Source of the DNA: Schmidtea polychroa
Lineage: Eukaryota
Assembly: GCA_044892525.1 (NCBI GenBank)
Contig: CM097885.1
Span: 18,850,001 to 18,914,000, forward strand
Length of the DNA stretch: 64,000 bases
Reading direction: 5' to 3'
Positions 12,751 to 56,139 of the stretch are shown here, piece after piece (the stretch's first letter is position 1; every line of letters starts with the position of its first letter). The notes under the pieces are model-generated. The model searched no databases. It worked only from the letters and a program-made list of their open reading frames with translations, and was not told the DNA's origin. A program made the translations under genes and the position numbers.

Positions 12751-12752
<2 letters not shown>

Positions 12753-12805
<53 letters not shown>
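12753..12805 (-). repeat. Poly(A)53 tract on the element sense strand
   Basis: 53 consecutive T on +, 32 nt downstream of the stop of ORF 12838..14436. Confidence 0.95.
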
Positions 12806-12837
12806 CATTCTTATTTACAGGCAACATCTCCCTTCGA

Positions 12838-14436: not shown

Positions 14437-14518
14437 TGTCTAAATAATTACACTATTACTACCACTATTATTTCATACATTTATTATCTACACTTTATAC
14501 ACGGAATTTTAATTTTTG

Positions 14519-15697: not shown

Positions 15698-15837
15698 CTA
15701 TAATAAATTTCATCATTTCTTTTTACATTTTCTTTTTCTAATTTTTATGGTTTTGGCAAGTTACTTTACTGTATACAATAACTTTATATTTACTTTACAT
15801 CGTTTTTACAAAATATTTACAGTTCCCTTCTATCCGT

Positions 15838-17262: not shown

Positions 17263-17351
17263 TCTACAATGATGATTTTTAATCTTGGGATTTCTACTTG
17301 ATTATAACTCTATTTATTTACAGGATTATTTACATTTCACTCCTTTCTCTC

Positions 17352-17807: not shown

Positions 17808-17955
17808 TCCTATTTATAATACATGGTCATCATACTTGTTTTTGATTTTTCTACATATTGTTTTAATTTACTACTTTTATTTTGTACATACTACTACTAT
17901 TATCACTACTTTTATCATTTCATTTATACATTATTTACAACAACTCCTCCTCTCG

Positions 17956-26900: not shown

Positions 26901-29900
26901 GACCGATAACGTTATATACTAAATATGCTAATCCCACTAAAAATCGATTTTGGTCCTCTGATCTGCTTAATAGATGTTCCACAATTAATCTGAGTTCCAC
27001 GGGATCTTTTAACGTTAATCGAATTTTATTATCCATGATTTTCATTATTATCGGTTTCAATACTGCCCATAATTGTTTGGCTTCGGTCGGAATATTATCC
27101 TTCCTCATGACTCTTTTCACTTCTGGATTTGCTAATGCTAACATGTTGGCTAATAGGTCATTTATCCATCGTGTCCCTTGTTCTCGGACGCTTGTCTTCA
27201 CTTTCACTTGTTTTACTAATGCACTTAGTTTATCCATTTTAGTTTTTACCTGCTCCATTTGCGCCTGAACTTTGGATTTTGGTTCGATCTCTGCTTTATC
27301 TGTTTTTGGTCTTCCTCTTGTTCGTCGATCCATAGCTGTTCCGGTTTCTTTCCGTTTTGGCGGATTGTAAGTTGTATCTTTTGACGTGGTCGCTCCTGGA
27401 TCTACTCTCCAGTTGCTCCATTCATCGGTTGTGGTTACATCTTTATTGGCACCTCTTTCCACGTTATCTAAATCCGTCTCGGCTTCCGTCGTTTCCACTG
27501 GTTGTCTCTGCGCGCATACAAATCCATCTAAATCATCAGTTGTCGGTTCACCTTCGTCGATAAATAGATCTCCTGATTGCGATGCTCTCATAATCTCGCC
27601 TGCTTCTACTATCTCTTGTAATTCATCCAGTATTTCGTCTTCTCCCGTTGTTTCGATCGTCACTTCACTAACCGCATTTGGAACTTCTGGTGTGTCCAAA
27701 CTTCCTGGTTGTTGGGTGGATGATTTTTGCTTTATCTCTCTTCTCCTTAGCTCTCTACCTGCAATTTTACTCACCGTTAATCTGTTCACAATTTCTCCTT
27801 GGAGTGGTGTCACACCGATCTCAATATCGTCGTCTAATGATCGTCCCTCGTGTTGTAAGTGGAATGGGAGTTCATAAGGTATTCTCTTTTTAACTTCTCT
27901 GACTTTAGCTGTCGTATAGAATTCCTTTTCCATTGGTTCAAAATCTGGCATGAATATTTTTAATTGATATTTCTCAGGTGAGTTTTCGGCCCACTCTCGT
28001 TGTTTCCATTTCCGGATGATTTCACCAAATTGTTCAGGGTACCATACGTATACCCGTCGATATTCTTCAATCGCTTTAACGATCTTTCGTAGGTTTTGAA
28101 TCCTTTTGCATGATTCGGCTATCCATTTTGCTAGTTCTACCACCGCTCGTCGACGATTTTTCGCCCCGTTTTGTAATATCTCCATCAACTCCTTACATTT
28201 TTGTGCTTCCAACAATGTTGCTGCTTCCTCCTCATCTGCATCTGCGTCTATTGGTAGATGTCCTGAATCAGGCACTCTTCTCCTCATCATACAGATTCTC
28301 GGTTGATTTTCTGGTATGTTCAGTCGTTGGTTCATTTCTTGTTCTGTTTCAACTTCTACTCTGATCTGGATAGCATTGTTTTTCACAAATTTTGACTGCT
28401 CATTCTCAATGTAACTTAGACGTATTAATTTAGGTGTCCCAGAAGCGATATTTTCTGATGTTGTTGGTCGTTGATAGCAGGCGCTCCTTGGATCTGGTTT
28501 CAATGTTTCTTTATGCATGTTAAGGCTATCTTTCAATGGTTCGATTGCTATCGTCACTTTTCTGCTAAACGGCCATGGTACCTTGTCGTCATAATTTCCT
28601 TTGCAGATGGCGAAGAATGCCGACACATAATTTCCTTTACCTATCCCGTCTCCGTTCGGGTATATTCGCAATTTCATCTTGTACTCACCTAATCCTGAGT
28701 AGAACGGTGGACTTACTAATCGTGTGATTTTCTCTTCCTTTGCTGATTTTATCTTTTCCATCCAATTCTCAATTTTCCACGTGAATGGTGCTAACCTTAC
28801 TGGTTCTCGTATCTCCTCATCTTCTCCTGATGGTAATTCATTTTGGAATTCTTGTGGTAATATATCCTGGTAAGTATCGATCGGTTTCTCTCTTACCCAT
28901 ACTGCTGCGATCTCTTCGGGTATATTATCTATCCAATTTGGTTCCAACTTTTGCTGCTCCCAATCCCATCGAGCTTCACTTTCGATCCACACTTTTTTCC
29001 ATGGTATCAGTTTGCAATCTTCGTCATTGAAGGCTGCTAGTTTTAGTTTATCATCCTTTAGCCAATGGTTATAAATATCTATTATTCGATCCATCTTTGC
29101 TCTCATTCCCCATTGGAATCTTTTAACTTGTTGCTCGGTTTTCGTGGCGTTTTTGTGCCCACCAGATGGTTCATCCATCGCGATTATATTGATGACGGCT
29201 CCGTCTTCCCAGATTCCTAGTTCGTAAATTCCAGTTCGGTCTCCTCTTTCCAGCATGTGCCGGTTGTACATTATTATCACATCTTCGATCATTCCATCCT
29301 CACTATTTTCTCGAGCTTTTTGGATGATCTCTTGATCTATGATTTGCACTAACTCGTCAACTTGGCAATCGGGATTAACTTCTATTATTTGTTTCTCTTC
29401 ATTTGGCAACTTCACCTTTATTTTTATCGTTTCATGCTCGCATTTGGTTCTCTCGTATTCTCCGTATTTAGATATCAATTCTGTCGCTCGTTTGTCTTCG
29501 AATCTCATGATTTCCGTGTCTCGTACGTCTTTAACGAATTGTTTCATTAGTTGTGGCCATCTTTCTCTCAGTCTATTAATGTATTTCCTTGTCTGATCGA
29601 TAGCTTGTTTGACTAAGATTATTTGATTTTCTTTCATTATTTTTCGTTCGATCTTTTCCAATTCTGGTTCCACTTCATTGTTAAACACTTGTTGGATTTT
29701 CTTGAACATTTCTGCTACCGAGTCGTCATCTCTGGTTTTCTCTAAGGTTAAGATGTTAGTTTCGTTTGGCCATATCATCGCATCTACCAAATGTATGCCC
29801 ATTTTAACTTTGTAACCATCGACATATAATTGTTTATTTTTATGGCTCGTTCCCATTTTTTCCTGTACCCAGTTGTACAGTTCATCGGTATTTGTTCCTT

Positions 29901-32022
29901 TTAATTCAATAGTCTGTATCTGAATCTCGGGGTGTTGAATACTTACTTGATATTGATCTGGGCCTGCTTCCTTTAGTTTCTCTTTATATTTTGTTGCTAC
30001 ATCTTTCCATGCTGCCGTTATTATACCTCCTTCACACTGGTATACTTGAGTTATAAGTTTTAAGCATTTTCTGTATGTTAACTCGTTGATGTAGTTCTCA
30101 TTTCGCTCTATTTCTGTTACTGTGTCGAGAATTTCCTCGAATATCTCTTCTTCATCTTTTTCTATCATTGATTTCATGTCATCATTTTCACTCTCCTCAC
30201 TACTTTGAGGTGTTTCACTGTTTGGAGGTGTTTTCGGTTCGTTATTTTCCTCACTTGACTGAAATAATTCGCCTCCCAGGCTACTCACCTCACTTTTCTC
30301 ATCTTCCTGATCCGTCTGATCGCTCCGCATTTGTCTCAGCATGCTTATTTTAGCTTTGGTATGTGGTTCCTTCTTTTCAAACCACTCATTTTTCCTGAAC
30401 CAATGCTCTTTCACTTTTTCTTTTATTTGTTCCTCAGTTAATGTAGGATTTTCGTTTTTGATTCTGTCTTCGATTTTTTGTAGTAGTACCCTCTGAATTC
30501 GATTTTTTGTAATTATCTCATTGCTTTTTGGTTCGTCTTTACTCTCATCTCTCTTTTGTCTCCTTTCTTTCTCCTCTTTGGTAAATTCTTTAATCAATTG
30601 TATTTTCTCTTCACTGCTCAATTCTGTTCGTGGATCAATCTCATCTTCTTTTGTCGTTTTTATCTCCTTGTTTATTATCGGTTCACTCCCGTCGTTGTTA
30701 ACACACTGCTCCGCAGTGTGCGATTCCTCTTTATTTGTTAATCTCATCATATTTATTCTTCCGGGATTCGCTTCCCGTTGTTTCCATCTTTCTTGAATTT
30801 CTCTGGCTTCCTCGTTTTGTAATCTTTGCCATTCGACTCGTTGCTGATCTTGTTGTTGCTTACTTGGTTGGTTCCGGATTTCCTCGGTGCTCTGCATCAT
30901 GTTGATTCGTTGTTGTTGGTTATTAGTCGGTATTCGCAGGATCATATCTTTTAATTGTTCGATTTCCTGCATGAGGTTGATTTGTGTGTTCTGAACTGGA
31001 TTGTTTGATCCTGGTTGATTTGGTTTGGTTCTCATCGTGCATTCTCTTGCCATGTGTCCCGGCTGATTACAATTGTAGCAGGTTCTGGTTCCTCCTCTGC
31101 TCATAGACATCATGGGTCCTCTGCAGACATTTTCCGTGTGGCCTCTTCTCCCACACTTTTGACACATCCTTGCTTTATAACATTCATTGCTCCAATGCCC
31201 TGGTCGTTGGCATATGTTGCACGTTCGATTGTTGATGTCGTTGTTCCTGAAATTATTAGTAAAATTTTGAATATTACCTCCATTGTTTTGGTTTCTTGTT
31301 TGTGGAGTTTTGAACAACTGTTGCGATCCTGGGATAAATTGATTCATTACTGGATTTGCATTATTGACTTGGTTGTTTGTGGTTGTTGCTGTTGTTGCTG
31401 GAGCTGCTGGGGCTGCTGTCATTGCTGCTACTTGTATTGGTGTTAGGTAAGTTTCACATTTGTTAGCTATTTTTAGTGCTTCTTCCAGCGTCTCTGGTGC
31501 TCGGCATCCCAAAGTTGCTCGTATATCCTCCCGTTTCATGCCATCTACGAATACGGCTATTATTTTGTCTTCCGGAACTGGTTGATTTGAATCGAAGGCT
31601 TCTCGTGCTAGTCGTCTCAATTCGCATGCGTACAGTGCGTTGGATTCGTTATATTTCTGCTTTCGATGCAGAAAGTCTAACATTTTTCGATTTCCCTCTT
31701 TTTCGGTACCGAATGTTTTTATTAAAAATTCCTTGATCTCTTTCCACGTTCTCAACTTAGTTGCATCACATTTCGCCTCCAAGTATACATCTTGGGCGCT
31801 TCCCTTTAGATATAGGGGTATTCGTTCTCGTACGACTATGTCTGGCCAGTGACATATCGTAATGTATACTTCGAATTCCTTTATAAACGTTTCCAGCTGG
31901 TTTATATTTCCATCGAATGGCTCTCCTCGAAATTTCTCTCTGAATTCTCCAATGTTGACGTGCACATTACTTGTTTCCGGTGGGTCCGTTAGCCCTGTTA
32001 CATTTGGAATTCCGTCTGTCAT
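17956..32022 (-). CDS. Giant polyprotein Gag-UBL-UBL-MATH-UBL-Bcl2like-Env-PR-RT-RH-IN-ANK-membrane protein
   Basis: Frame is open from 32322 and the first ATG is at 32022 (the track starts at TTG 32244). CCHC x3 31039-31221; MATH ~28348-28788; DTG 24166-24174; YIDD 22945-22956; RNase H TDASG ~22500; integrase HHCC/DDE/GPY ~20900-21900; ankyrin ~20050-20415; C-terminal TM 18229-18291. Confidence 0.95.
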   Translation of the reverse strand: MTDGIPNVTGLTDPPETSNVHVNIGEFREKFRGEPFDGNINQLETFIKEFEVYITICHWPDIVVRERIPLYLKGSAQDVYLEAKCDATKLRTWKEIKEFLIKTFGTEKEGNRKMLDFLHRKQKYNESNALYACELRRLAREAFDSNQPVPEDKIIAVFVDGMKREDIRATLGCRAPETLEEALKIANKCETYLTPIQVAAMTAAPAAPATTATTTNNQVNNANPVMNQFIPGSQQLFKTPQTRNQNNGGNIQNFTNNFRNNDINNRTCNICQRPGHWSNECYKARMCQKCGRRGHTENVCRGPMMSMSRGGTRTCYNCNQPGHMARECTMRTKPNQPGSNNPVQNTQINLMQEIEQLKDMILRIPTNNQQQRINMMQSTEEIRNQPSKQQQDQQRVEWQRLQNEEAREIQERWKQREANPGRINMMRLTNKEESHTAEQCVNNDGSEPIINKEIKTTKEDEIDPRTELSSEEKIQLIKEFTKEEKERRQKRDESKDEPKSNEIITKNRIQRVLLQKIEDRIKNENPTLTEEQIKEKVKEHWFRKNEWFEKKEPHTKAKISMLRQMRSDQTDQEDEKSEVSSLGGELFQSSEENNEPKTPPNSETPQSSEESENDDMKSMIEKDEEEIFEEILDTVTEIERNENYINELTYRKCLKLITQVYQCEGGIITAAWKDVATKYKEKLKEAGPDQYQVSIQHPEIQIQTIELKGTNTDELYNWVQEKMGTSHKNKQLYVDGYKVKMGIHLVDAMIWPNETNILTLEKTRDDDSVAEMFKKIQQVFNNEVEPELEKIERKIMKENQIILVKQAIDQTRKYINRLRERWPQLMKQFVKDVRDTEIMRFEDKRATELISKYGEYERTKCEHETIKIKVKLPNEEKQIIEVNPDCQVDELVQIIDQEIIQKARENSEDGMIEDVIIMYNRHMLERGDRTGIYELGIWEDGAVINIIAMDEPSGGHKNATKTEQQVKRFQWGMRAKMDRIIDIYNHWLKDDKLKLAAFNDEDCKLIPWKKVWIESEARWDWEQQKLEPNWIDNIPEEIAAVWVREKPIDTYQDILPQEFQNELPSGEDEEIREPVRLAPFTWKIENWMEKIKSAKEEKITRLVSPPFYSGLGEYKMKLRIYPNGDGIGKGNYVSAFFAICKGNYDDKVPWPFSRKVTIAIEPLKDSLNMHKETLKPDPRSACYQRPTTSENIASGTPKLIRLSYIENEQSKFVKNNAIQIRVEVETEQEMNQRLNIPENQPRICMMRRRVPDSGHLPIDADADEEEAATLLEAQKCKELMEILQNGAKNRRRAVVELAKWIAESCKRIQNLRKIVKAIEEYRRVYVWYPEQFGEIIRKWKQREWAENSPEKYQLKIFMPDFEPMEKEFYTTAKVREVKKRIPYELPFHLQHEGRSLDDDIEIGVTPLQGEIVNRLTVSKIAGRELRRREIKQKSSTQQPGSLDTPEVPNAVSEVTIETTGEDEILDELQEIVEAGEIMRASQSGDLFIDEGEPTTDDLDGFVCAQRQPVETTEAETDLDNVERGANKDVTTTDEWSNWRVDPGATTSKDTTYNPPKRKETGTAMDRRTRGRPKTDKAEIEPKSKVQAQMEQVKTKMDKLSALVKQVKVKTSVREQGTRWINDLLANMLALANPEVKRVMRKDNIPTEAKQLWAVLKPIIMKIMDNKIRLTLKDPVELRLIVEHLLSRSEDQNRFLVGLAYLVYNVIGQYKKRMPKYNATGYEFTVTEIIKRSIEPYILEQGGWRSFIESTGKKDQTEMMQAKLRDLLTEFEGTININDPRASRKGMNAIITTILIWMMCIKGTESFAVYDCDNIKIHEKYSLKDTEDCKAANPRKLQTVMASVSYNVYQEADFIKTMVQECTVTRKIFAHHCGSSSHSTIIEPGLESTVILLSREECEEGFRSGRIHLRQGIEIAAEPGKIKTTRVYTAGRITKGDGTCETGTYTLNGQLVSGVVVIESYEAKLEKYQGYFDPDTQAMKKYPSCLASDRSCSTGMSTLVYHADQKVCRLMLLKTAIFEEIQGKVYSEPKGEAERRAMEELRARKGFREDVITSKLESEVTPTAIISKDDGIGMRFIKNKMVSKCDEMVISTNYKGIYLSRRTLANAVGRLSEKDVKLYLYANNKMDFLYHRGLTSTEKVYHDLLRNDCLLNKEILRTKLAMAITNPDNAIPLLPLQEGYFGRIVGEVMYTYQCKKIMARLPENPTIPRDKCANELEIIHEGKPRFVQAVTRIMNPVGFQPNLFNCSNAYGPMYEKEDGQWVQFPSKTIVVTPKKFGLTELTTELEFKPIDVSQSGLYTPKDLESARAHMLFPAHRQAILSNIVTISGGNNYGESPNYELLLSPSHYQQATANMMKAMWGRFLVFGQMMAGILGIILIIQIVRVILTQMLACFDIYKRERKVNWKLAIGFLPFLAKTMVLHGHSKDIHRIKRLLKILTQMKGTDEEVGRKFKVIMRLEAERTQEKAKRTGKWKKWMNLRRDDDSDNDNDDFNDDDNNQGGAMLINKNTATWENEKMKPWGSPYSQTPYLQAPTNGPMRRPGTMRERIRMGTGRLPIPNIYPTAYEPNWAAMDPTMIKQAKSVEQEVETRTIAVLQTPAGPSLTITVEVNGIEMDAMIDTGANISAINMNMLPGRLWPCIEETTMDVITCSKQSIAVVGRVWSTIEYKGVKVTTYLAVIRQLSVSCIIGTDVMPELLKEIVIDLSSMKLKDKTGQICTMRTEVRCSEKMIIPARTQTICYVKVDNEAKGDMIFEPSQKFEKRRELPLAREIVSINEDNEIPINITNFDEEDKVIYENERLGKLTPMMNIELPEIKSEGADEKELWTIDSELLNKDEKEQLRQLLIEFKDIFAASDLDLGTSDVTQHIIPLTDETPITLRPYRLAEAQKTVAEEEVQKMLDAGVIEPSCSPWQFPVVMVKKKDGTQRFCIDYRRLNAVTKRDTYPLPDINEMLQMLHGAAYFTSLDLKSGYWQIKVKEEDREKTAFTIGKDLYQFKKMPFGLTNAPASFQRCMNFVTHGIKQCMVYIDDLLIYSGTFEQHLIDIRNVFIRLKQWKLKLKPSKCDWAKERVTFLGHIVSAKGKEPDPRNVEKIKNCPIPKTVTQVQEFLGLCGYYRKFIKNYATIAKPIQELTKKDTPFLWEREQQIAFESLRDKLIASPILIHPDFKKPFLLATDASGYASGAVLGQWDEEKRERVIGYYSKTFKKHEKNYSVTEREALAIIQAIKHFKYLLWGHEIIITTDHQPLVWLGQHKEASSRLMRWAMQLQEYSPYIKFKSGKANANADCMSRFVFEELMDHDVRRICLIIAEDIDFTNLKNEQKEDNELKLIIEFLEKNDMKIFNNDDRLKEHMEKNRHRYTIEKGWLLVMDGDKRLMCLPESRRKAIMIQYHDGKLGGHMSAKKTEARLKQKYYWPNMSDDVKEWIKNCLICATRKTTGSKLKPPLKPMPIPPEPMTMIAMDVVGPLPETNSGNVYILVITDYLTKFPEAFAMPDQKARTVARILVEEICCRYGTPKQILTDQGTNFMSEIINEVTNYFRIAKLRTSPYHPQTNGQTERFNGILIDMMSNYVSKHQKDWDEYIKLCLMAYRMSIHSATKMSPFKLMYGRECNMPMDLEYQPPISQYMEIDDYVTKFKERMQEIWKTAGMNIRFNQESYKELHDKKKNVQNHQFKIGDWVIIETPELIPGTAKKLQRNGRGPYEIIYVNENNARVKLVNNPLIRPIYVNTCRCKAVAKTATKDPETRRIITRSQTNATTEPEVSGRLTRSQTRRIFMLRGETSSSAHKGTEAESEADAMARSQATWNMTVKIAREIVPEWADITNKYQVLGKLMLVAERYAKGRRYAEGLQIPTQIYELIRRLPIMFLTSDLSNNWPIHHAVKAGQEKRALEIIRIMENCKQSTNVKNSKGKTPLMKAIAIGASRDVLRELLRTGSTLKEKDNKQRTVLRYAVRSKRPSIVNFITGNATTEEAEVLGQSIEPILEAIRGNLDRTAAILIKWKQNELRAEVIDINQFQNNENIVLRSAIYSRPPMPKTIKAILQRNRTELTGNWWKCTKTHAMKKQLGILVWEWHRKQRKYQGTKEERESIHNDKKEIIKKYEEMIKAANVEDDIFRKTPGERNDDDDDDERMGDNDNNPEENDREQNPEGGETTSDDEELEEDEEDQCRGEDQGFDKTENKKRKSPLHSIVCRNQIQPILLQRIFIILTSICLTETKNMRIVREASQEGEVFMIKVSDYDGNAVGICVQLMEGTGVSCDFRSITKGKIFSSQKRDPRLCGDYDICRDISTKEMELERANETGVHFQLNILEEGIEIEDKGSRSITHVCIREDRDICIITDMTQDHKFFWGEVKPNTPTVVCAGTQGIVVCKGTRTAPRKDKPKSMAMKQDPLRGITTKKPNKSVSTKTTTEQNQTELITTTTWINEVIKDERREVQITINLNKKGEEVITVKNQEGEPIIRICVMDKTGIIDCTTTPIDKGTDVKMETGKRKERYQVCILKKGRGTSVCQPITRQKPQLINIPWIPRDQKGGEKRENHSHLTEKEKERLHQAFKKIKAPETNTTGSTILTTEKTNNGTTIITKMIWITSAIVSTIIALAMIQWIRTTKRCKQKPRNQRKWPKVEKFEYGIPTENLNLEEYEVVEDPGSSGLWMSELPRIPTPNEWTHEVDIYRITDERYGGMRTLHSGPMATLV
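24760..26667 (-). other. Envelope glycoprotein domain (chuvirus-G-like) within the polyprotein
   Basis: Internal signal MNAIITTILIWMMCIKGTES, then AVYDC..YSL....C, HCGSSSH, SREEC, GEVMYTYQC, C.NEL, SGLYT..L....MLFP; TM at 24857-24950. Confidence 0.8.
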
Positions 32023-33113
32023 TATTTCTTGACACAAAATTGTTATATTGGTTGACTCTGAACTATTTCCTTCCTCGTCTGATGATTCAATGTCACTTAT
32101 CGGATCTAGTTCGGTTCGTTTAAGATCGTCGCTGTTCTCAAATTCGTTTGTTAAACTGTCTGATTCAAATACTGTTTCTACTGATGCTGGCTTCCTGTGT
32201 AGTTTTCTGTTGGTCTTGGCCTTTTGTATCTCTTCCTTTTCCAATAAACTGAGGTTTCCTTTACTTTTTCGCCTCGTTCGGTTAGCTATGCTATCAATTT
32301 TTCCTCCTTTTAATATCCTTTGCTAAATTTTCTACTTTGTCAATCGAGCTCGATGTTTTCTAAGTATTTTTCTCGCTTTAATCTTTACGATTCTCTAACT
32401 CTTCTTGGATTTGGTTTTATTAATTTCCTTGATTCTTCGCTTCTAATTGATTTCTCTATATCTCTTGATTTCTATTGCTTTCTTGATTTCTTTGATTTCT
32501 TTCTGAATTGTTTGCTTTATTCTAAAATAATTAACACCTCTAGTACATATCATAAATTCTCTTTGTTAAACCCTTCATTTACTTTCCCTTTTCCCTTTAT
32601 TTTACTGTCCCTTCGCTTCAAATTTTCTAGCTTTTCTACACTTCTCGCTATTCGCCCCATTTTGATTTTAAGTTGATTTTAAATTATCTATAACTCGTAT
32701 CAATTATCTATATAGTCGTATCAATTATCTATCCCTTTTATTATTATCATAGAAATATAATATTAATCACATAAATATCAAAATAAACATATCATTAATA
32801 AATAAAATTCAATAATTCAACTACTATCTATTCGTTCGCTTTTCCCCATCCAAAAACTGGTTTAATTTTCGCTTGCGCCGGCGCTTTATCATAATTCTCC
32901 TCTACTCATTACATATTTATCGCACTTAATCTATTTCAGTTTAATCAATTTCATAGTTAATCATTGATGCTTTGGTTCGCGCGACCTCTACATCCACCTT
33001 TATTTACCATCGGCTCTCTGGCCGGTTTGTTCAACTCCTTTATTTTCATTTAAATCATTTCACTCAATTACCATCGGCTCCTTGGCCGGTTTAATCAACT
33101 CATTTTAATCTCA

Positions 33114-33425
33114 TGAAGTCTTTTACGACTCCTAGACGCCTGGGCTTTTACACCATTACGCCATATAATCTACTATTACCCATCAACGCTTTGGTTTGTT
33201 AGACCTCCGCGTCGGCATCGGCTTCCGGCCGGTTTAATCAAAATTGAAGTCTTTTACGACTCCTAGACGCCTGGGCTTTTACACCATTACGCCATATAAT
33301 CTACTATTACCCATCAACGCTTTGGTTTGTTAGACCTCCGCGTCGGCATCGGCTTCCGGCCGGTTTAATCAAAATTGAAGTCTTTTACGACTCCTAGACG
33401 CCTGGGCTTTTACACCATTACGCCG
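33114..33425. repeat. 131-bp tandem repeat (~2.4 copies) in the 5' leader
   Basis: Unit TGAAGTCTTTTACGACTCCTAGACGCC... restarts at 33114, 33245 and 33376; degenerate sub-units extend to ~32970. Confidence 0.9.
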
Positions 33426-34834: not shown

Positions 34835-35317
34835 TTATGGGAGGTATATTACAATTTTCTCTCTAACATTCGTATCGCATACGTCGCATCGTTTAATTTT
34901 CTCTGCGCAATTCTCGCAGTAGCATAAATGACCACATGGAATCGTCATTACTCGTATTTCATTGGTTCTGCATATGAAGCATTTTCTAAAATCTTTAACT
35001 TGATGTTCGATTGCTTCTTTAATTTCTTCCTCGATCGTTTCCATTTTTATCATTATCTCCTGCCATTTGATGTTAAATTTGGCATTGTCTAATCGTAAAT
35101 TTTGAAGTTGATAAACTCTTTTAGTGGTCAATTCTGCATTAGGTGTCGCTATTTTCATCATTACGCATATTTCCTCAGCTTGCGGTCTTGGATTCAAGCT
35201 CATCTCATCTTGGATTTTTATCAACTGGTCCGCTTTGCGATTTAGCCGTTGTAACGAATTGTGTGTTAAATCTACGAATTTTTCGAGTCTCTTTGTAATG
35301 TAGCCGGTTGATTCCAT
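34835..35317 (-). CDS. Upstream accessory coiled-coil plus IAP-type RING protein
   Basis: CFICRTNEIRVMTIPCGHLCYCENC....CDVC...KIVIYLP at the C-terminus; lies between the PBS and gag. Confidence 0.85.
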   Translation of the reverse strand: MESTGYITKRLEKFVDLTHNSLQRLNRKADQLIKIQDEMSLNPRPQAEEICVMMKIATPNAELTTKRVYQLQNLRLDNAKFNIKWQEIMIKMETIEEEIKEAIEHQVKDFRKCFICRTNEIRVMTIPCGHLCYCENCAEKIKRCDVCDTNVREKIVIYLP

Positions 35318-36016: not shown

Positions 36017-36034
36017 ATCCCGGCTGAGCCCCCA
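36017..36034 (-). promoter_or_regulatory. Primer binding site, tRNA-Pro-like
   Basis: Minus strand TGGGGGCTCAGCCGGGAT matches the canonical tRNA-Pro PBS TGGGGGCTCGTCCGGGAT at 16/18; 8 nt from the 5' LTR. Confidence 0.85.
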
Positions 36035-36441
36035 AATTTGTATGGTGGGTTACTGGTGGTTGAATGATTGAGTGCTGTTACCAGCGTAACCCAAAATACA
36101 ACATTGTTTTTTCCGCTTGGTACCCGTTGAGTGATCAACGTTGGTACTGTACCAAGGGTTGAGTACTCGCAAAAAGTGAGCGCATCAAAGCACTATAGTT
36201 GTCGAGTACTCCGTGGGTTCACGGACTACCGATAGAAGGTGTGTGTCCGATTTCTCAGGTCCCTTTATCAAAATTGTTTTCCCAACCTTATGCACAAACT
36301 CTCATTTCCCAGGCAATCATAAACTGTACTAGTCATTATTTTATCACTACAAAACGTGCAGTATTTTAACAAGGAACATATTATTTGAAGACTACCACCA
36401 TACATAAAAATACTACAAAACACCTAAAACCGAATATAAGT

Positions 36442-36912
36442 TCAAACAGGCTTATTGGTAGGACTGGCCAATTCCGTCGCATCTGCTAGTGACGAATTTG
36501 CTTGTCGCTCGTATTCGGCCAGTCTAGCTTTCTTCAATTTTTCCCGAATATTTCGGCCTAACCGCTTTCTTGTGGGTTTCTCTTTCGCGGCCGGGGGGTA
36601 TATTGCTGCTAGTTCCACGGTCAACGGCCGGATTTGGCTTATGGCGGCTCCGTGAACTACTTGTTCATTGCGTTCGGTTTTTAACGCGCGGAGCTGGAGT
36701 TTCAGTGCCCGGATCTCCATCTGATCCTGCGCAGCTTGCGTCTGCAGTTGAAGGACCTGCGCCACCTTCTTTTTCATATCCTCGGGACTAAACCAGGTGC
36801 TTTCTAGTTCCCGGCATCGTCCCTTGAGCTTGTCTACTCGTATGCGGAGCTCCTCGGACTGTTTTTGAGCATCTGCTCTATCTCTTCGCAGATTTTCCAA
36901 TAGTTTGAACAC
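36442..36912 (-). CDS. LTR-encoded coiled-coil protein (5' LTR copy)
   Basis: Identical translation to 6558..7028. Confidence 0.7.
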   Translation of the reverse strand: MFKLLENLRRDRADAQKQSEELRIRVDKLKGRCRELESTWFSPEDMKKKVAQVLQLQTQAAQDQMEIRALKLQLRALKTERNEQVVHGAAISQIRPLTVELAAIYPPAAKEKPTRKRLGRNIREKLKKARLAEYERQANSSLADATELASPTNKPV

Positions 36913-37121
36913 TAGATAAATTCAACGATTATATTCTTGCAGCATACTCTTCATTCAATTATAAAATAAAATCAATATTATAAATAAACATAGTTTCGGA
37001 TGTTAAGCACGCAATACACAAGATGATTTATTAAAAGGACTGAAATAATTATCACTAAAATCAAAGTTTAATAAAGTCACAACTGGATGATAATTTGCAA
37101 AAACAAAATTTTGACGATGAG

Positions 37122-37487
37122 TCAGTTCAGTCGCTTGCGAGGCCTTCCCCTCTTCCGCGGGGTTGCCTCGGCCTCTTCTAGGTCCTCCACGGTTTTTCCC
37201 TCTTTTTCTGCTTGGATTTGTAGCTCGATTTTCTTGAGTCGCATCTGAGCTGCTTCTACCTCGATGGCCGCTCGGTCGCGGGCCTCTTGCAAAAAATCGT
37301 TTGTGGGCTCTGTTTTTACCCACGCCGGAGCGTCCGGCTCCGGCCCACTCCTGATTACTGGGCCAAAGTTGTCGAGGTCCAAACCCCGATTCCAATCATG
37401 GATACGGTGCCATATGTACCGTGTACGGAGTCTGGTAAGCATCTGTCGGTCGACTTCTTCGTGGCTATCGCTGTCAGAGTAGGACAT
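37122..37487 (-). CDS. LTR-encoded AT-hook protein (5' LTR copy)
   Basis: Identical translation to 7238..7603. Confidence 0.7.
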   Translation of the reverse strand: MSYSDSDSHEEVDRQMLTRLRTRYIWHRIHDWNRGLDLDNFGPVIRSGPEPDAPAWVKTEPTNDFLQEARDRAAIEVEAAQMRLKKIELQIQAEKEGKTVEDLEEAEATPRKRGRPRKRLN

Positions 37488-39627
37488 TTCTACAAAATAA
37501 TAATCAAGCCCCTCTATACTGATTGAGATACGACGTCAACCACAAGATTTTGTTGACCCTTTTTCCCTTTAAAAAAAAATATTTTATTTTAAGACTAACA
37601 TCTATAAGCTTAGGAACAGTGGAATAAGATTTCCTACTTTATCAAAACAAACACAAAAAAAGGAATTTCGTCAAAATTCGTTTGTTTAAATCAATCATTT
37701 CCATTCAAAATTTTTGTTTACCATGAGTGGTAATTTTAATCACTATTTATAAATTTTAATTTATATGTTAATAAAATGTAAAATTTTTTTAGATCGTCAT
37801 TTTTAGGCCACTTAATTCGGGCACGCTGGGGCGACAGGTACTAGCAACGAACTAAGCTCTTCGTCTGCTTACCTTTCCTTCGGTTGTGCTCGTTATGAGT
37901 GGTTTGCTCTGCATACAAGTAATTTATTTAATTTGCTAATTTCTAAATTTCCAGGTGATCGATATCGGATTGGGATATCGATTTTTTGTAGTTAACTGTA
38001 ATAATACCAATAATAATAACAATGAAATAACGATACCAATAATAATAATAATAATGATAATAATAATATTAATAATAGCAATGATAGTAATAATAATAAG
38101 AATAATAATAAATTTTAATAATGGTAATAATAATAATACTAATAATAATAATAACAAGAATAATAATAAATTTTTATAATGGGACTGATAATGATGATAA
38201 TAATAATAATGCTAATTATGATATTCATAATAATGATAATAATAATATAATAATAATAAGAATAAGAATAATAATACTAATAGTAATGATAATGTTGATA
38301 CTGCTAATAGTAATAACCAGGGGAATGATCAGGATTATGATAACTATAATTTTATAATCCCATGTTTTAAAATTATAAATTTATGTTCTATGATTTATAC
38401 TTTGATAATTTTCGATTTATAATTTAAAATTTTTCAATTTAGGGATTTACAATCTTGTAATTTATAATTATAATTTCATATTTTGAAATTTATACATTCA
38501 TATTTTATAAGTTATAATTGCTTAACTTATAATTTATAAGTTTATAATCTAAAATTTATACTTTTGTAATTCGTATTTTCGTACTTTATAATTTGAAATT
38601 TGTAGTCGACGGAATATACTTCTTGCAACTTCCTTTCTATGATCAACATTGTTTTCCGCAGTACTTACAGATTTCCTGGTCCTATTTGTGGATTAAACTT
38701 CAGGGTTCTAGCGCGTCTATCGCCTATCTGTAACCAATCCTAAGTTGATTTTTATACGAAAAATTGTTTATTACTATCTCTGATCAGACTTTCTCCATTA
38801 ACAATTTACATTTTCAGGATCGACGTGATTTGTACCTAGCTATCGTAATTATTTATAACTTATAGTTTTATAGTTAACAACAAGAATATTACAACTAAGA
38901 GCCTACCCATTTACAAACATTTTAAAGTGGGAACTAGATTTAAAATGTCTATCTTTACTCGGAATCAGCATATCTAGATCAAGTTATACCTGTACGTATG
39001 CCGAATATCTCTCCTATTTCTATTACTTTATCAAAGATCCTTACTACAAAATCTAGTTCGGCATATATCTAAGTATAATTGAAATTACCATTATGAATCA
39101 ACTAGCTACATTAATGTGAGTGTAGAATTGTGTAATTTTAGGTACGAGCTCTACTCAAATTAGAACCTTAGTGTAGAGTTATTGTTCAGGATTTTAAGTG
39201 TTGAGTTTAATTGTATATTACGCAATGAGTCGGGAAGAATATTGCTTCCATGGCCCCACTGTGACCACGTCCACAAACCTTAGTGTTGTGTGCTAAGTCA
39301 ACCATTTACGGCTGACCTTAAATAAATACGAAGAGTCAGGCGGAGGGTTTCCTCGACCTAACTCCATGGCAGGACCATGAAGTAGTTCGACCTCCGGCTG
39401 ACCCGAACAAAAAGAAATCATATAATAAATATCACTATAATAATGATAATGCGTGTCTGCATGTCCTGTTAATAACGATTTTAATAAATTGGATGCAGGA
39501 CTGAACAACGACGCAGGAATACCAGTACGCCGTTGATCACTCATACATCGCAAAAAATTTTAAGCAAAAAATAAATTTAAAATACCATCTATATAATTAA
39601 ACAATTAATATACAAATAAAGATCAAT

Positions 39628-39710
39628 GCTTACTATCGATTTTGGAAATTTCGTCACAAAAATTTGGCATAAAAGTGATTGATTGTGACTGAAACGTGTC
39701 AGTATATATA
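39628..39710 (-). promoter_or_regulatory. Candidate LTR core promoter and first splice donor
   Basis: Minus strand: TATATATA (39710-39703), Inr-like TCAGTC/TCACTT downstream, then GATA|GTAAGC donor at 39633. The TATA block is retained in relics at ~45615 and ~53684. Confidence 0.5.
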
Positions 39711-42254
39711 CCTATTTAGTACACGTGTATGTATTGATGCATTAAAACAAACTCGAATTCTTTTTATTCCAGAATTTTCTATTTTACGATTTTGCTATTT
39801 TTAATGGCAATTTTTGTGCCATAATTTTTGTTTTTATTTTTATATTTTTATTTTTTAATTATTTTTCCTTAATTTTACGTCCATGATGGATTTGGAACGG
39901 TTCCAGAACATTCTATTTTACTTTTAATTTAATTTTTATTTTAACTGATGTTTTTATGAATTCTTTTTGAGATTTTTTATTTTTAATACTAATTTATTTA
40001 TTTTCCTTAACTTTTGTTGTTCTAGATAACTTTTGTGATGGTCATCGCCATTTTTATAGAATGTTCTGGGTTTTTCTGGAATGTTTTACTGTTTTTATCG
40101 TCTCTTAAGTTGTTCGAGTCTGTTTTTTTGTAACTCTGTGTTTATTTGGTTATTTTTGAGTTAGATTTTTGCATCACTTCTTGCTTTTGTATAATTTTGT
40201 TTAATTTCTTTGTTTATGTTTTTGTTGCTTTCTCCTTTAGTTAATATTGTTTATTTGGTGTAGGTTTTAATATTTAACTATACTTGGTGCTTTTTTACTT
40301 GCTGTGTACCTACGCGTTTCAGTCACAATTAGTATTTTGGGTCTAGAAATCAGTTCTAGCCCAACAATAGTTGCTACCAGGAGAATTTTGTATAGCAGAA
40401 ATTTAGAAATTCAGAAATAAAACAAGCTATATCAGCTTTGTGTAAAACTTACAGAATTTTAACCATAAGGTTACTTAATTCTACTTTGTTTTAATTTATC
40501 AATTAATTGCACAACCCGACCACGAGAAGCAGTATTTCGGCCTGTCTTAAATATTGGATTAAAAGTTTAGAAAGGAACTATATTAGGAAACGTTAGATTG
40601 TCCTTGATCTAGGCGATAGCGCAAACATCGGGAAACCCCTCCATCTTCAACTTAACTTAATATACAGTACTGTGAGCAATTGGATCCAGCATTTGTTTCT
40701 TATTCTAAGGACTGTTTGTACAACCAATTTCTTTGCTTTATAGAATCAGCGGCATTTTTGGGTGTATTACATATATTGTGCATATTGAAAAAAATTATCT
40801 TATCTTCGTTAATTCATATTTATTATTTATTACACGCACATATATTATATATCTTTGGAATCTGATATATCAGTCTGTGTTAGGAAAATATCTATCCCAC
40901 CAGATCAGAACCTAAAAGTATCTGTCTTCTGTTCGAAACCGCGCATAATTATTTATTTGATCACTAAACGCTCGTTACAAGCGATGTTGGTACTGCAATT
41001 AAGCGGTTATCTGTCTGCAAAAGTTGAGCCTCATCATAAGGTATCTTAATGCCAGGACTCGCCCTTGGGTTTGTTGGTCGCTTAGGGGCGTGTAATTTTA
41101 TTGTCAAATGTGTTAGGGGTAATTGTATGTATTAAATCGACTTCTTCCTAAACACCTTCATGATTATTGCACTTAAGAACATATATGTTCCCATGACGAC
41201 GACCATGTTGGTACTGTGCACAATGGTTGAAAATTAATGAGCAGGTGAGCTCTATTGCTAAAACTACTCTTCATTGTATTTTTCTTACAGGTTCTGGACT
41301 GCCGATAGAAGGTCTTACGTCATTATTCATTATCTATTTCTATTGTTGGATCATTGAAATGCCTTCATTTAACTATGGTTCTCATTTCTGGATGTTTTCT
41401 ATTGTTTTCTTCAAAAATTTGAGCAGGGATCGGCCCTTATTACTAAGTTAATAAATGTAGTTTCATACTTCTCATAAAATTTGGGCAGGGATCTGCTTGT
41501 ATTTCCAACTCCAACCTATGTTCTACTAAAACGAACCCGTCCTATACTATCTATATTTAAACAAAGCTTCAAACTGTCCAAAATGAATCTATGTTCTCCC
41601 ATCGACCCTATCCCTAACCATATCCTCTAAACGATATGCCAGAATGGTCAACCATCCACTGTCCATCAGTCTTTCGACCGATGGTTTACGGACGTATCCC
41701 AAACCTGGGGGCATCAAAGTATAAAAATTATGACAAAACAAAATTCAACCATAATTATTTATTCAAAGTTTTATAAACGAAATAATCAAAACACCAAAAT
41801 TAACTAAAACTAAATTCAACTTAAAATTTTATTAAATCATGAAATTACATTATACTTTACATAAAATTACATTTCACATAAAATTACCAAAATAAAATCC
41901 AACTTACCGCGATTGCATAAACCGAAAACTGAGAGCGCCTAGCAATGTCTGGTAAATAAGGTTGATTTCAGATTAAACTAGTTTTTTTTACTGAATTTTC
42001 AATCAGTATTTATACTGATTTGATTGCACGCCTACGCATTCTCTGCTACTATATCCCATTAACAGGCGATAAATTTGAATTACTATGAATCCATGCATAA
42101 GTGTGTGCAATTATTTATTTTTTAATTTAACTGATTTAATTAATTAATTATTTAATATTTTATTAATTTTAATAATTTAATTTTATAAATTTTATAATTT
42201 AAATAATTTTGGTTAATTTTATTTTTGTTTTTATTAATTTAAACACTTTGATTC

Positions 42255-44545: not shown

Positions 44546-46704
44546 TAAATAATTTTCAACTAATTCTATTTTAAATTTTATTATTTTTCCATCGAAATTT
44601 TTAGTTTCAATTTTTTTTAAATTTATTCATCTCTTTATTCTATTGTACGGGTTTTATTGATTCTTAATACGTTATGTAATTTATTTTATTTTATTATTTT
44701 ATATTAAACCTCGATCATAATTTTTTTCAACTTTGTGCGGTTTTTGTGTTCGGTATTTTCGATCCATTAAAACAAACTCTCAATTCTCGGTTTTAGCCCA
44801 ACAGGTTCATGGGCTTACTGCAGAAATTTTGGCGCCCTATTTCCTCGTGTTCCTTTATCATCTAATTATTCTTCCTACCTCTTTTTGTCGTTGATTTTAT
44901 CTCAGATCTCTGTGTTCATAGTTTATTCTTATGTTGGGCTAGAACTGAATTCTAGACTCAAATCTTGAAAATATGTCGAAATGTGGTGGTACATAACACG
45001 CACACCTAGCATTAAGTTGATTCAAATAAACTATATACAACACCAAATAAACAACGATAATAATGAGTAAAAATAACAGAGAAATAAAAACATCTAAATT
45101 AAGAAAATAAAACAAAACAAATGTAAGAAATATCACATGAAAATTGACTCAAATATAACAAAAAAGCACAAAGGTACAAAAACGAACTCGAATGAAGTCG
45201 AAAATCTGTAGAAAATATAAAATAAGAGAGAATTCTAGACAAAAACCCCAGAGCAATCCAAATAAAAGCGAAATTCATCATGGATGCCATTCAATACAAT
45301 AAAAGTTAATAAAATTAAATAATTTAGTTAAAAAGTAAAAATCCTAAAAAAGAATTCATAAAAAACGATTCTAAAATAAAAATCAAAATAAATTAGATAT
45401 GGAACGTTCTGTAAATGCCCAAATCCACCATAGAGGCAAATTTAACGAAAATAATTAAAAAATAAAATTTTATAAATAGAAACAAAAATTATGGCACAAT
45501 AATTGCCATTAAAATTGTTAAAAATCAAAAATAGAATGTTCTAGAATTGAAAAGAATTCGAGTTTGTTTTACTGCATCAATGCACACACACGTACTCGCA
45601 CACACAAAAATAGGTATATATACCGCCACGTTCCTGTCACAAGTTACTCTTTTATGCCAAAATTTTTGTCCAGTAATTAGTAACACTGAATTATATATAT
45701 ATATATATATATATATGAATTTTTTCTAAATAACCCCCTTAAGTCATATAATAGTTGGGGTAGGGTGACACTACCAATTATCTAATGTATGCTATTAATA
45801 TTGTTAATTCGGTAATGTATGTAATGATATCGATTTTAGGATTCCCCTAATGTCAAATTTAATTATAGGATACCTTCACCAAATAATATCGCTAGGATTT
45901 TACATATTCTATTTTTAGTAGTACCCCCCTTAATTATCGAAGAAAAACTAAGTTTTCCCCACACGCCTATATACATATATGTGCGTATATGGATGGGTGG
46001 TTATGTGTGTATTTTTACCCAGAATGAATTAGTGTCAACTTAAAACTCGAAGAAAAGAGTAGCGACTCGATAATTATCAAAATTTTGATTGGGTTCAATT
46101 TGAAAATTTTCAAATGCTAATTTTTGATTAACCTCATGAGTTCAGACAAATTATTCCTATTTACTCGCTAGGTTCATAGATTCGGTTTATTAAAATTAAA
46201 GAAATAAAACTTAATTCCTTTGCTAATGATTCGGAAACTATTTCATTAGCCATCATCTAAAATAACAAGTCCAAAATTTTCTTAATAAGAGAACACAATA
46301 GTGTTGAAACCAGAAACCCATATTCGCAATAATTTTTTTTAACAACAACGCCAATAAATCAATTCACTTTAACGATTCAGGATCACTAAACTCAAATCGA
46401 GTGTATTATTATAGATCACAGAACTTAGACTCAGTTGGTAAAGGCATCGAGATCTGCCTTGGATACTGTTTTCATAAATCGAATGGAAAGTTTTCGGATC
46501 ACCGTTTGATAAATAAACTCGTTCGGCAACTGGTGAATTTCTGACATTACTCAATGTTAATTGAACCAAATTTGAACCAAAGGTTCAAATCTATAAATCA
46601 TATCGTTGACAAAGCCTTCTCCTGTGGCGATTAAAAGTACATATTAGCTAGCATGAAAATAGAAAATTAAATTTCAACTTAAAAGTTGACACAATGCAGT
46701 AAAT

Positions 46705-47033
46705 CAGGGGTGCCCATAAGGTCGATCGCGATCTACCGGTAGATCGCGAAGGATTTTTTAGTAGATCTTCATAAGAAAAATATTTTTTATATAAATTTAG
46801 ATTTTATATAAAATTTCTGTTTTATGCTTAAATTTTTTGCCAATTTTCATGTTCTGTGTTCCATTTCTATGGTAATACTAAATAACATTTTTTAATTTTG
46901 ATTTCACCATTTCCAAAATGTTATTTAGTTTAATTTAATTTTGTTAAATATTATGTAAGTATTAAAAAAGTAGATCGCATACACATTTTGGATGTGAATG
47001 TAGCTCTCCTAGAAAAATTAGTGGGCACCCCTG
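46705..47033. mobile_element. hAT-type MITE
   Basis: TIR CAGGGGTGCCCA / TGGGCACCCCTG; perfect 8-bp TSD CAGTAAAT. Confidence 0.9.
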
Positions 47034-48249
47034 CAGTAAATAATAATAAATGAAAATGGAAAATTAAAACATGAGAAATTAAACGAAAATTGACAAGAAA
47101 TGGAAATATATGTTATGTAGTTTTAAGAAGAATCCTTATTATTTTAATAAATTTTGCAAAATTAAAATGACCTGAGATTAAATGTTTTCGTTGTAATTCA
47201 AAAGTTGCAATAGTAAATTTTTTACTTGATAAATAGATTCGATAAATTTTTTTTGGAACTTTCGATTAAATAAATTCACTAGAATATATTTGATACCTCC
47301 AAGTTAGCAAACCCTTAGAGTCGAAGAGAGAAAAATGATGATCAAACCGTAAACTGTCCTTGTTATTGGAGGGTAGAGTACCGATGGGAAGAGCCGATGT
47401 ATCTATTTGGGTAGGTATAGGTATATATAAATATCATAGCGAATAAAGTCACAAATTGCAACATTTTTGACGTCGGTCTGATGAGAATGCTGGAAAGTTT
47501 ATCGAATTTGGGAAAATAAATAAATTTAAACAGTAAATATAAATTTAGAGATGTCACAACATAACGATCACGCGAGAAGGGTCAACAGGCCGAATCCATT
47601 ACTCGAATCAGAACCAGATGGATCTGGTACTAAATCCACTCAGCGGGAAGATCGGCCTCGCCACTCCCAAGAAGGAGGCTCTCCCAAATCCAGCCTTAGA
47701 GGCGAATGAGAGAGCCGTCTCAACTGAACAGGATCCAATCCGGAACCTCCTGCGGACAGATTGAGAAGTTTGATTCGGTGTCCTGGATAATCCCAGCGGG
47801 AACGCCTGCGTTCGCTTGGACCCTACCTTACTCGCCGAACTGAATGCCTGGCAAGCCAGGTCGGAACGGGAATCTCGAGCGGCATTCTCCAACCAGAAGT
47901 CCAACCCTAGGAAACATGGCTGACCCCGCAAATCAATGAAGCAGACTGACGACAGCAACAAGGATTCGCCTTCCCGATCCTGACGCAACCAATAACTCCG
48001 GAATATAAACTATCGTGATTAGTCAACCACTACATTGACTTAGTGAATATTATCCTGTGTGTTGATCTCATTTAATTATAACTACTAGTTAATATTTAAC
48101 TACTGTGTTGACTCAGTTATTATCCTTTTGTTTGTTAATTTCATTTGATCGTAAGTATTATAGTTATAATTATAGATTATAATTGATAGCATGAGAGAAG
48201 GATAGAGTACGTAGGAGATCAATCTAACGATACTTTCTTTTACTTTTCT

Positions 48250-48760
48250 AGTGTTCAAACTCTTCGAGAATTTACGAAAGGACCGGGAACAAGCCCAGCA
48301 ACAAGTTGAAAGTCTCCAGGCAAGCATCGCAAAGTTCAAGGGGCGATGTAGAGAAATGAAACGCACCTAGTTTAGCCCCGAGGATATGAAGAAACGTCTG
48401 CGACAGATCGAGCTCTTACAGCTTCAAAGTGCGCAAGATAAAACAGAAATCTGCGCGCTGAAGATACGAGTTCGCGCAATGGAGACGCAGCTAAACAAGA
48501 AGACCATCAACGAGCATGTTGCTGCAGCAGTAACACAATAACGATGATATTAATTTCATTTCCCAATTAAAGATGAAAAAAATTACATAAAACCACAAAC
48601 TAAAAAGCTGGCAGATATCCGTGTAAATAAGCCAGGCAAATCAAAGCGCAAGAGGCTAGGCCGGGAGGGGAGAGAGCGATTGAAGCGACTCCGGATGGCC
48701 GAACAGGAGCGCCCAGTCGAACCAGGACTATCACAACCCAACTCAACTCACGAACAGTAA
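48250..48760 (+). pseudogene. Decayed homolog of the LTR coiled-coil ORF
   Basis: FKLFENLRKDREQAQQQ...KGRCREMKRT*FSPEDMKK...KRKRLGREGRERLK aligns by eye with 6558..7028. Confidence 0.85.
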
Positions 48761-49180
48761 TGTAATTATATAATGAGAGCTTTATTAAAATCGTTGTAAT
48801 TTTCTACAAGTATGTTGGATGTTAGTTTGATGAGTTAGAGAGAGGTATGGAGGTATGGAGCTTGGGAAAAGCATTAAATTAAGGGACCGGAGCAAATCAG
48901 ACACATATCTTCTATCGATAGTCCGTGAACCCAAAGAGTGCCCGGCAATTATAGTGCACGTAGTACGCTCACTTTTTGCGAGCATTCACCCTCTTGATAC
49001 AGTACCAACAATGATCACTCATCGGGTATCAAGCGGAAATTAAATAAATTATAAAATTTTGGAAATAAAATAAATAAAAATTAGCCAAAAATCGACGTTA
49101 AAAATAGTACAAATTAAATCAAAAAAATTAATAGAATAAATAAAATAAAAATTATTTTAATTTATTTTAATAAACTAATG

Positions 49181-53644: not shown

Positions 53645-53682
53645 TGGCATAAAAGAGTGTCACTTGTGACTGAAGTGTGGCA

Positions 53683-53729
<47 letters not shown>

Positions 53730-55334: not shown

Positions 55335-56139
55335 GTAAGGAAACTCCAAATTCAGAAAATCGGCAGTAGACTCAGATAGGACCAAGAAAACGAGAGTAGG
55401 AATTAGAGGAAAAGAAACTAAAACTGAAAAGGGGATTACAAGATGAACTAAATGGTTAGGACGAACGAGAATATCAATGGAATTCGGAGCAATGAGTGGA
55501 ATAGAAAATAAAAAGGTGAGACTTATCTTAAATCGCACAGGGTCGAGACTTTCCAGGGCGAAGCTAGATCAGACAGAGTAACCGAGTTAATTGAGTTAAT
55601 TTGTTGTTAATTGAAAATTGTTATCATTTATTGAGAGTTGTGAATTTGTTATAAACAAATATACGTTGGGAGTTTGTGTTTATTGATTTTAGGAGACGTG
55701 GAGTCAGAGTTACAAACGGTTGACTTTATATTATCATAAAACCCAACAGTACCAATCGCAGCGTGTGATAAAATTCACTTTGAACTACTATAGGTAGCAT
55801 TATTTTTCTTCTAAGTGATTTTCGTTTATCTGTTATTTATTAATTATATGTCGCTTCGAACTGGTTTTTATTAATTCGGATTTGTAGGACAGAGATGAAT
55901 GATACAGATGCGGTGGAATTTGTGTACATAAATAATGCAATGAATGGATTCCCTTTATCAAGCCATAAACGATAGGGTTAATCGACGCTTGGTAGTTATT
56001 AATAAATGAGTTATTAATAAATGAGATAATTTATGATAAAACTAAACAATTTGCTTGTTGTTTTTGGTTCAACCAATTTAAATATTTCATATTTTAATGG
56101 AACATTTCAAGGAGGTATTTCGTTTAGATCTGAATACAG

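Follow-up and report, generated by a model that had tools for sequence, protein, structure and literature searches.

A GT-AG intron in the long terminal repeat of a Burro-like element of Schmidtea polychroa probably splits the start codon of a coiled-coil gene

In the Drosophila retroviruses of the springer subclade the start codon of env is split as AU|G, and these gypsy-type elements complete it when a short 5' exon is cis-spliced to an open reading frame (ORF) that has no ATG of its own (10.1101/2023.08.03.551782). The gypsy element Cer1 of C. elegans makes a novel protein (CERV) from a spliced RNA and must nevertheless export its unspliced genomic RNA (PMC10309623). Here we describe a Burro-like element with long terminal repeats (LTRs), 34,208 bp (~34.2 kb) in length, that lies on the minus strand of a 64,000-nt stretch of Schmidtea polychroa DNA (GenBank assembly GCA_044892525.1, contig CM097885.1, positions 18,850,001 to 18,914,000; henceforth the window, with coordinates counted from its first letter and features of the element being on the minus strand). 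A GT-AG intron in its LTR very probably splits the start codon of a coiled-coil gene as A/TG, and this gene is likely translated only from cis-spliced RNA. The splice-built start codon is in itself a variant of the springer-type split start that is already known. The subclade, however, splits AU|G and joins it onto a separate env ORF, whereas here A|UG is joined onto a small LTR ORF and the fusion protein sits inside the polyprotein; moreover, the intron lies here entirely within the LTR, holds another gene and has a donor with at least two acceptors.

The element shares with Burro/GYPSM1, the giant Ty3/gypsy elements known from planarians, a length of >30 kb with long LTRs (here 34,208 bp and 4,324 bp), a polyprotein of ~4,800 aa with CCHC Gag, MATH, an in-frame mononegavirus-like fusion protein, the protease (PR), reverse transcriptase (RT), RNase H (RH) and integrase (IN) order PR-RT-RH-IN and ankyrins, and accessory ORFs with BIR and TRAF (here also RING) (PMC6431247); for the BCL2-like motif of Burro/GYPSM1 a profile search, the only type of search made, gave no Pfam match at E 0.01 in the element's proteins. 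The portions of that account used here are silent on LTR-internal ORFs, introns and the expression of the accessory ORFs. The literature searched (titles and abstract openings) held nothing on Burro splicing, LTR ORFs or intron-less LTRs, PMC8532177 treats BURRO without mention of splicing, and Grohme 2018 and the Repbase entries may bear on the matter. How some 10 separate ORFs are expressed in 30-kb Burro elements is thus undescribed in that literature, and the present finding gives Burro a first exon, two splice targets and base-exact junctions.

The two LTRs (5' LTR, 36043-40366, TG...CA, with a 4-bp target duplication CTAT; 3' LTR, 6159-10482, at an offset of 29,884) are 4,324 bp long and 100% identical, and each contains the donor A|GTAAGC, the acceptor TAG|TG and two ORFs, which in the 5' LTR are ORF1 (37487-37122) and the coiled-coil ORF (36911-36442). 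A TATA-like box (39700-39712), part of a conserved promoter module present in 47 distinct LTR modules, starts at 39710 and thereby 76 nt ahead of the donor, close to the ~70 nt of the first-pass annotation; the distance is 78-99 nt in the strong-donor rows of diverged modules. The leader exon (39634-39680), the 5' end of which is predicted from the TATA spacing, ends in the A at 39634, an end that is fixed by the intron-less sister LTRs L213, L239, L240 and L243 (see below). The donor GTAAGC (39628-39633), which reads GTAAGG, GTAAGA or GTGAGT in diverged LTRs, was correctly placed in that annotation (A 39634, GTAAGC from 39633) and recurs in the 3' LTR (9750/9749), as do both acceptors (7606/7605 and 7028/7027). 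From here the intron to the coiled-coil ORF extends over 2,722 nt (36912-39633), contains ORF1 and ends at the acceptor TAG|TG (36912-36922; AG at 36913-36912), after which the frame continues with TG TTC AAA from 36911. The other acceptor, a YAG (Y, pyrimidine) at 37490-37500, lies 2 nt 5' of the ATG of ORF1 (37122-37487; 121 aa), the product of which has an acidic N-terminus and a basic, GRP-containing C-terminus that we take to be AT-hook-like, and has no Pfam or Atlas match.

An intron in an LTR should occasionally vanish via reverse transcription, and we therefore searched the same genome (G000) for intron-less LTRs, i.e. for the leader motif at no more than 50 nt from either ORF start. 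One such search found three matches, of which L213 and the identical L215 represent a solo LTR of 2,242 bp (target duplication AGTC), in which the leader is joined to ORF1 at the acceptor described above, and L214 is a chance match in unrelated sequence. In the parents of L213 (96% identical), nine of the ten left-hand loci show A|GTGAG; L233, the remaining one, reads A|GTGAGT with its alignment shifted by one base. All eight right-hand loci have YAG, and the intron between the two sites measures 3.2-3.9 kb. A second, looser search found six matches versus two in a reversed control, and three of the six are not intron-less. One sister element has L240 as its 5' and L239 as its 3' LTR (1,561 bp, 3 mismatches, 99.8% identical, target duplication GTCA); the primer-site region and internal ORFs adjoin them, and both copies have the leader-A fused to TG TAC AAA, with the frame broken after 16 codons. 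L243 (79% identical to L239/L240) represents a second event, in which the leader-A is fused to TG TTT AAA and 75 codons are open. The homolog of the window's 2,722-nt intron is exactly absent in all three, while their closest intron-bearing relatives read TAATA|GTAGGT at the leader and CAG|TG at the acceptor. L241 and L242 are chance matches, and L212, the sole match of a first and too strict pattern, has the promoter module and a donor-like site of its own and is not intron-less.

Could such short LTRs be chance DNA deletions, the donor and acceptor motifs being neutral? The search patterns were designed to find the motif and an ORF start close together, and unrelated sequence made up three of the six matches in the one search and one of the three in the other, against two matches in the reversed control of the former. 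The introns are moreover flanked by short repeats (TTATAG, AGT), but a repeat-to-repeat deletion would leave a G, and each fossil joint can be obtained from one breakpoint only, which is the splice site, with zero microhomology. That three independent events stop exactly at GT and AG, that the intron is retained in the parents and that the frame is under selection make chance deletion scarcely credible. Zero-homology joints exactly at splice sites imply that the fossils are likely retro-copies of cis-spliced RNA. Judged by these fossils in sister subfamilies, the donor is genuine, works in cis and is used with both LTR acceptors. For the two genes of the LTR this settles the choice between cis-splicing and spliced-leader (SL) splicing. 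One intron and two genes are maintained here within an LTR through reverse transcription, with the genomic fossils marking intron losses, and fossil searching offers a means to check splice predictions in repeats without RNA data. The element that holds L239, L240, L253 and L254 (G000:C1, ~78,918,500-78,953,700) is full-length, and its LTRs are without intron, donor and ORF1; only this one full-length intron-less sister element was found, which is consistent with a dead end.

Conservation of the splice sites was assessed in promoter modules that were gathered by the TATA box and a downstream motif, the donor not being used as a criterion. A GT[AG][AG]G occurs 25-62 nt past the motif in 32 of the 47 distinct modules (none in 13, out of range in 2), and the last exon base (-1) is A in 31 of these 32 diverged donors and C in one. 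On a tree of the upstream 280 nt (median identity 82%) the number of changes is one at -1, ten at -2, one at -3 and six at -4; position -4 is a purine in 32/32 modules, its six changes being all A/G, and +3 shows four A/G switches. As controls, A precedes 874 of 2,709 GT[AG][AG]G motifs anywhere in these loci, and in 57 host myosin introns (kept at a score of at least 90 from 62 called, with non-independent paralogs and some calls that are likely wrong) the -1 base is, roughly, G in 22, T in 19, A in 9 and C in 7. The purine-A-N-A|TG around the split codon reads as an initiation context according to the Kozak rule. In young LTR loci the donor is retained in 30 out of 30. The host myosin introns (L198-L211) are, by the same rough calls, mostly 41-60 nt long, many with a non-G base at -1 and with GTT donors.

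At the other end of the intron, TG is preceded by TAG in 32 and by CAG in 5 of 46 distinct diverged copies (YAG 37/46), and is itself kept in 41/46; a T-rich tract lies 5' of the acceptor, and it is there that the similarity between subfamilies begins. The ORF1 acceptor is kept likewise, with YAG exactly 2 nt ahead of the ATG in 18 of 25 distinct diverged copies, misaligned rows counted. A GT donor and a YAG acceptor with permitted exchanges (GTAAG/GTGAG, TAG/CAG) across subfamilies agree with a spliceosomal intron of the U2 type, as does its exact removal in the sister LTRs. A diverged relic LTR elsewhere in the window (44932-49040, plus strand) keeps the acceptor at 48251/48252, as had been noted in the first-pass annotation (TTTTCTAG|TG at 48244-48253, CTAAC at 48224-48228), while the homologous donor is lost. 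The branch-like CTAAC, also pointed out there, is present upstream of the acceptor in the relic and, by visual count, in 13 of the 30 diverged copies, but absent from the window's own LTR. An alternative donor at 39044 (A|GTAAGG) would also yield ATG and was rejected, since the intron-less fossils use the first donor; an exon 1 copy within the intron was not seen in this LTR, where 132 of 200 shuffles score equally well.

The coiled-coil ORF (36442-36911) encodes 156 aa with the spliced ATG, having long helices and a basic tail with 12 K/R in 28 aa, and occurs in the same genome in at least 150 near-identical copies, mostly as pairs ~30 kb apart. The earlier claim that it has no ATG was too strong, as an in-frame ATG exists at 36777, but this is residue 46 of the spliced product. 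When the window copy is set against 21 of the 28 distinct diverged ones (seven were excluded for indels), the ratio of nonsynonymous to synonymous differences (pN/pS) in the 43 codons 5' of Met46 is 0.28 in the A|TG frame versus 1.32 and 1.53 in the other two. Purifying selection on these codons implies that they are translated as protein and that the start must lie further up, and upstream the frame closes 4 codons before the acceptor in 30/30 young loci. An ATG-based gene caller would consequently cut 45 conserved residues off the protein. Without splicing, the genomic CTA GTG TTC might supply a near-cognate GUG start on unspliced RNA: the GTG is in frame and is kept wherever AG|TG is kept, and Val occupies the junction position in P0001, a distant homolog. 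Such a start would have a pyrimidine at -3 and T at +4, however, and as it leaves the T-tract, the TAG/CAG exchange, the donor and the exact intron-less LTRs all unexplained we consider it very improbable. P0001 belongs with P0002 to a homolog cluster at 42% from ENA contigs; the protein has no Pfam match, its Atlas matches are generic and under recognition level, and metagenome contigs gave no locus for a homolog. Fossils, frame selection and the conservation of donor and acceptors together support the splice-made ATG, as had been proposed for leader-A plus TG TTC, and cis-splicing.

The leader itself contains an ATG (39668-39670), in a weak context and in the window copy open and in frame with the junction, which may add 12 residues there. 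With the same splice, translation could thus start at 39670 as in the env genes of ZAM and Beagle, the junction ATG then being an internal Met. The donor-anchored phase 1 is indeed stop-poor (5/224 codons), but phase 0 is equally so (7/256). L157, L178 and L187 are all in phase 2, inherited within one subfamily; in another sister family a stop is reached at codon 6 in 9/9 copies; and the ATG has T at -3 and is probably less than 15 nt from the cap. Its conservation is inflated, as the motif is part of the search pattern, and the fixed A at -1 would be left unexplained. The upstream ATG is therefore not a conserved start, and as the start of the coiled-coil protein it is improbable.

Several observations nevertheless weigh against translation from a splice-made ATG in the form given above. 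The upstream ATG is in phase 1 in 17/33 modules (p 0.023, the copies being non-independent) and open in 14 of them, and it may be used in some subfamilies, that of the window included. The intron-less copies stem from sister subfamilies (identity 80-91% over the upstream part of the LTR) and not from the window's own; the fossils attest splicing and not translation, and they leave the start site unfixed, as an intron removed from the 3' LTR portion of a genomic RNA would result in identical DNA. The count of 31/32 was reached after 15/47 modules without an in-range GT[AG][AG]G donor had been excluded, a looser definition of the donor, applied to an earlier set of modules, yielded A 27, T 4 and C 1 of 32 with 6/38 modules uncalled, and such counts are non-independent because the LTR copies are related by descent. 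In the family L244-L252 position -4 is T and not a purine in 9/9. Finally, host donors show no predominance of G at -1 (22/57; 0/7 among those with G at +5), which makes the A found here less unusual than the textbook consensus suggests.

The following sequence of events would account for these data. The TATA promoter at 39710 would start an RNA near 39680, of which a ~45-nt leader exon, ending in A, is joined by the spliceosome either to ORF1 (YAG|NN ATG) or to the coiled-coil ORF (YAG|TG), as DNA copies record for the sister subfamilies and as we infer for the window's element. The end of the leader, purine-A-N-A, would provide the codon's A and at the same time place the start in a favourable initiation context. 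The choice of acceptor may then act as an on-switch, since unspliced and ORF1-spliced RNAs are without the junction ATG, and a spliced RNA that runs past the LTR would keep the primer site and rarely be reverse-transcribed into an intron-less LTR.

Whether the leader serves the rest of the element as well is a separate matter. The first-pass annotation had proposed a universal leader acting by cis-splicing, of which the two acceptors within the LTR stand and the part concerning eight internal ORFs is still a matter of inference. Of 158 non-coding ATGs 8.9% have a YAG at most 3 nt away, whereas in 6 of 9 ATG-led ORFs the first in-frame ATG has one (p 3e-5); the remaining three ORFs are one ORF with AAG, one with TAG before a later ATG, and the polyprotein with an acceptor-like site (32522-32530) that is followed by 499 ATG-free bases, the only gap of at least 400 nt among 787 ATG gaps in the element, and that is kept in two sister elements. 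The RING ORF (34835-35317), which precedes the polyprotein, has TAG immediately 5' of its ATG, and the six 3' accessory ORFs (10837-17813), which include TRAF-like and BIR-RING ones, each have AG 0-3 nt ahead of an early ATG. After in-silico joining to the leader, 7/8 internal ORFs have A at -3. Of the internal acceptors, 7/8 are kept in one 92% identical sister element, and in L178 the RING acceptor is changed and the polyprotein acceptor kept, a comparison that is weak because diverged full-length elements are scarce (one sister plus L178). On these data we lean towards the leader serving the eight internal ORFs too, against which the conserved second donor at 37872 has to be set. This second donor-like site, G|GTAAGC (37867-37872), is predicted and also occurs in 8 distinct sister-family copies; together with a CAG it delimits a candidate second small exon (37873-37995, minus strand) with a phase-0 ATG, which would be in frame with ORFs whose ATG lies 0 or 3 nt past the acceptor, and the sister family shares both the donor and a phase-0 ATG.

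It is also plausible, though we would not call it probable, that the internal ORFs are resolved operon-style by host SL trans-splicing and that the LTR leader is cis-spliced to the two LTR genes only; this contests no more than the universal role of the leader. Spacers of ~80-170 nt that contain TGTAAATA/AATAAA motifs and lead to an acceptor fit such a layout, flatworms trans-splice and have operons with spacers of up to 300 bp (PMC12582326), and Cer1, also a gypsy element, takes SL1 (PMC3315495). The flatworm spliced leader ends in AUG (PMC12582326), and this AUG would be in frame for 4/7 internal ORFs with a nearby ATG. On the coiled-coil ORF, however, the same terminal AUG would open a 26-codon out-of-frame product with a stop after 25 codons and without selection (pN/pS 1.32), and the SL loses to a cis donor in competition for an acceptor downstream (PMC4558846, citing Hastings 2005). 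The A at -3 that cis-joining gives 7/8 internal ORFs also speaks for the LTR leader, though the SL would do about as well. Trans-spliced RNAs would lack the primer site, and no fossils are therefore expected from them. In contigs assembled from the presumed RNA runs X1 and X6, the joint 9750 to 7027 is absent among the 15 of 16 joints listed, and in another layout of such contigs 15 of 43 joints are listed, all from run X2; because assembled contigs drop rare forms, the missing joint and the low cover at ~7700-9100 are no evidence either way. The motif TGTA[ACT]ATA, which presumably resembles a Pumilio element or a poly(A) upstream element, is found in spacers around ORFs on the minus strand (17939, 17334, 17322, 15821, 12819, 11882, 11871 and 35693), these being the 8 of 10 element matches that are listed outside coding frames.

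Complex retroviruses and the adenovirus major late unit use one 5' exon with many acceptors, each ahead of an ORF. In comparison, two LTR acceptors are shown here, and the 3' ORFs would need introns of up to 28 kb. A full programme of the complex-virus kind would have the 45-nt LTR exon cis-spliced to ~10 acceptors over 28 kb, with its last four bases tuned for all of them, and an LTR-encoded Rev-like product, its AUG built by this exon, that guards the export of unspliced RNA so that the LTR intron survives, intron-less elements being failures of this guard; we regard this as rather doubtful. That the coiled-coil protein is a nuclear regulator of the Rev/CERV type is our best, though tentative, guess. 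Its probable origin from a spliced RNA and its basic, RNA-binding-like stretch (12 K/R in 28 residues) agree with that type, and its predicted structure consists of three long helices (pTM 0.30). CERV, however, shares Gag peptides and its role in export has been shown (PMC10309623, PMC3315495), whereas the protein described here is LTR-encoded and its role is putative.

Within the intron a hairpin-rich block (39240-39420; fold z -2.37 for 39040-39420) is kept in sister families, with a local match in 30 fetched loci, some of them overlapping, and no match of note in Rfam; a contig of run X6 starts within it at 39396, beside a CAG at 39400-39398. Some 300 nt upstream of the TATA box, at 10089, 10124 and 10128 (39973-40012 in the 5' LTR), the same run has poly(T) loose ends, which point to poly(A) sites or to internal priming; a genomic RNA with its start at 39680 could not end there. 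A second TATA-like module is present in the relic at 47415-47560 (plus strand), ~130 nt ahead of the relic's own ORF1 ATG, and several diverged copies have similar TATA-like boxes at -680 to -925 from the acceptor.

As regards the remainder of the element and its surroundings, the Gag-MATH-fusion glycoprotein-PR-RT-RH-IN-ankyrin polyprotein (17956-32022) is a frame of 4,788 codons with Pfam matches to, in order, CCHC, MATH, Monjiviricetes fusion, protease, RT, RNase H, integrase and ankyrin. Rfam and tRNA scans gave nothing of note. A primer-binding-site-like stretch (36018-36035, minus strand) begins 8 nt past the LTR end, an unusually long gap that is the same in L240. The 5' internal region has a 131-nt exact tandem duplication at 33114-33375, and the spacer after a 533-aa ORF contains a long genomic A-run on the minus strand (12712-12804). 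Further fragments of related LTRs lie at 4276-4903, 53644-54081 and 55087-55336, the one at 53644 having a TA microsatellite within the TATA box and being cut after the leader motif. Nested long inverted repeats (99-100%) at 2136-4281 enclose a 211-codon Gag-like fragment (2964-3599). The element is flanked by two intron-free RS-rich RRM ORFs, presumably Tra2-like, at 1128-1901 (minus strand) and 62985-63743 (plus strand), which are 73% alike over 318 nt.

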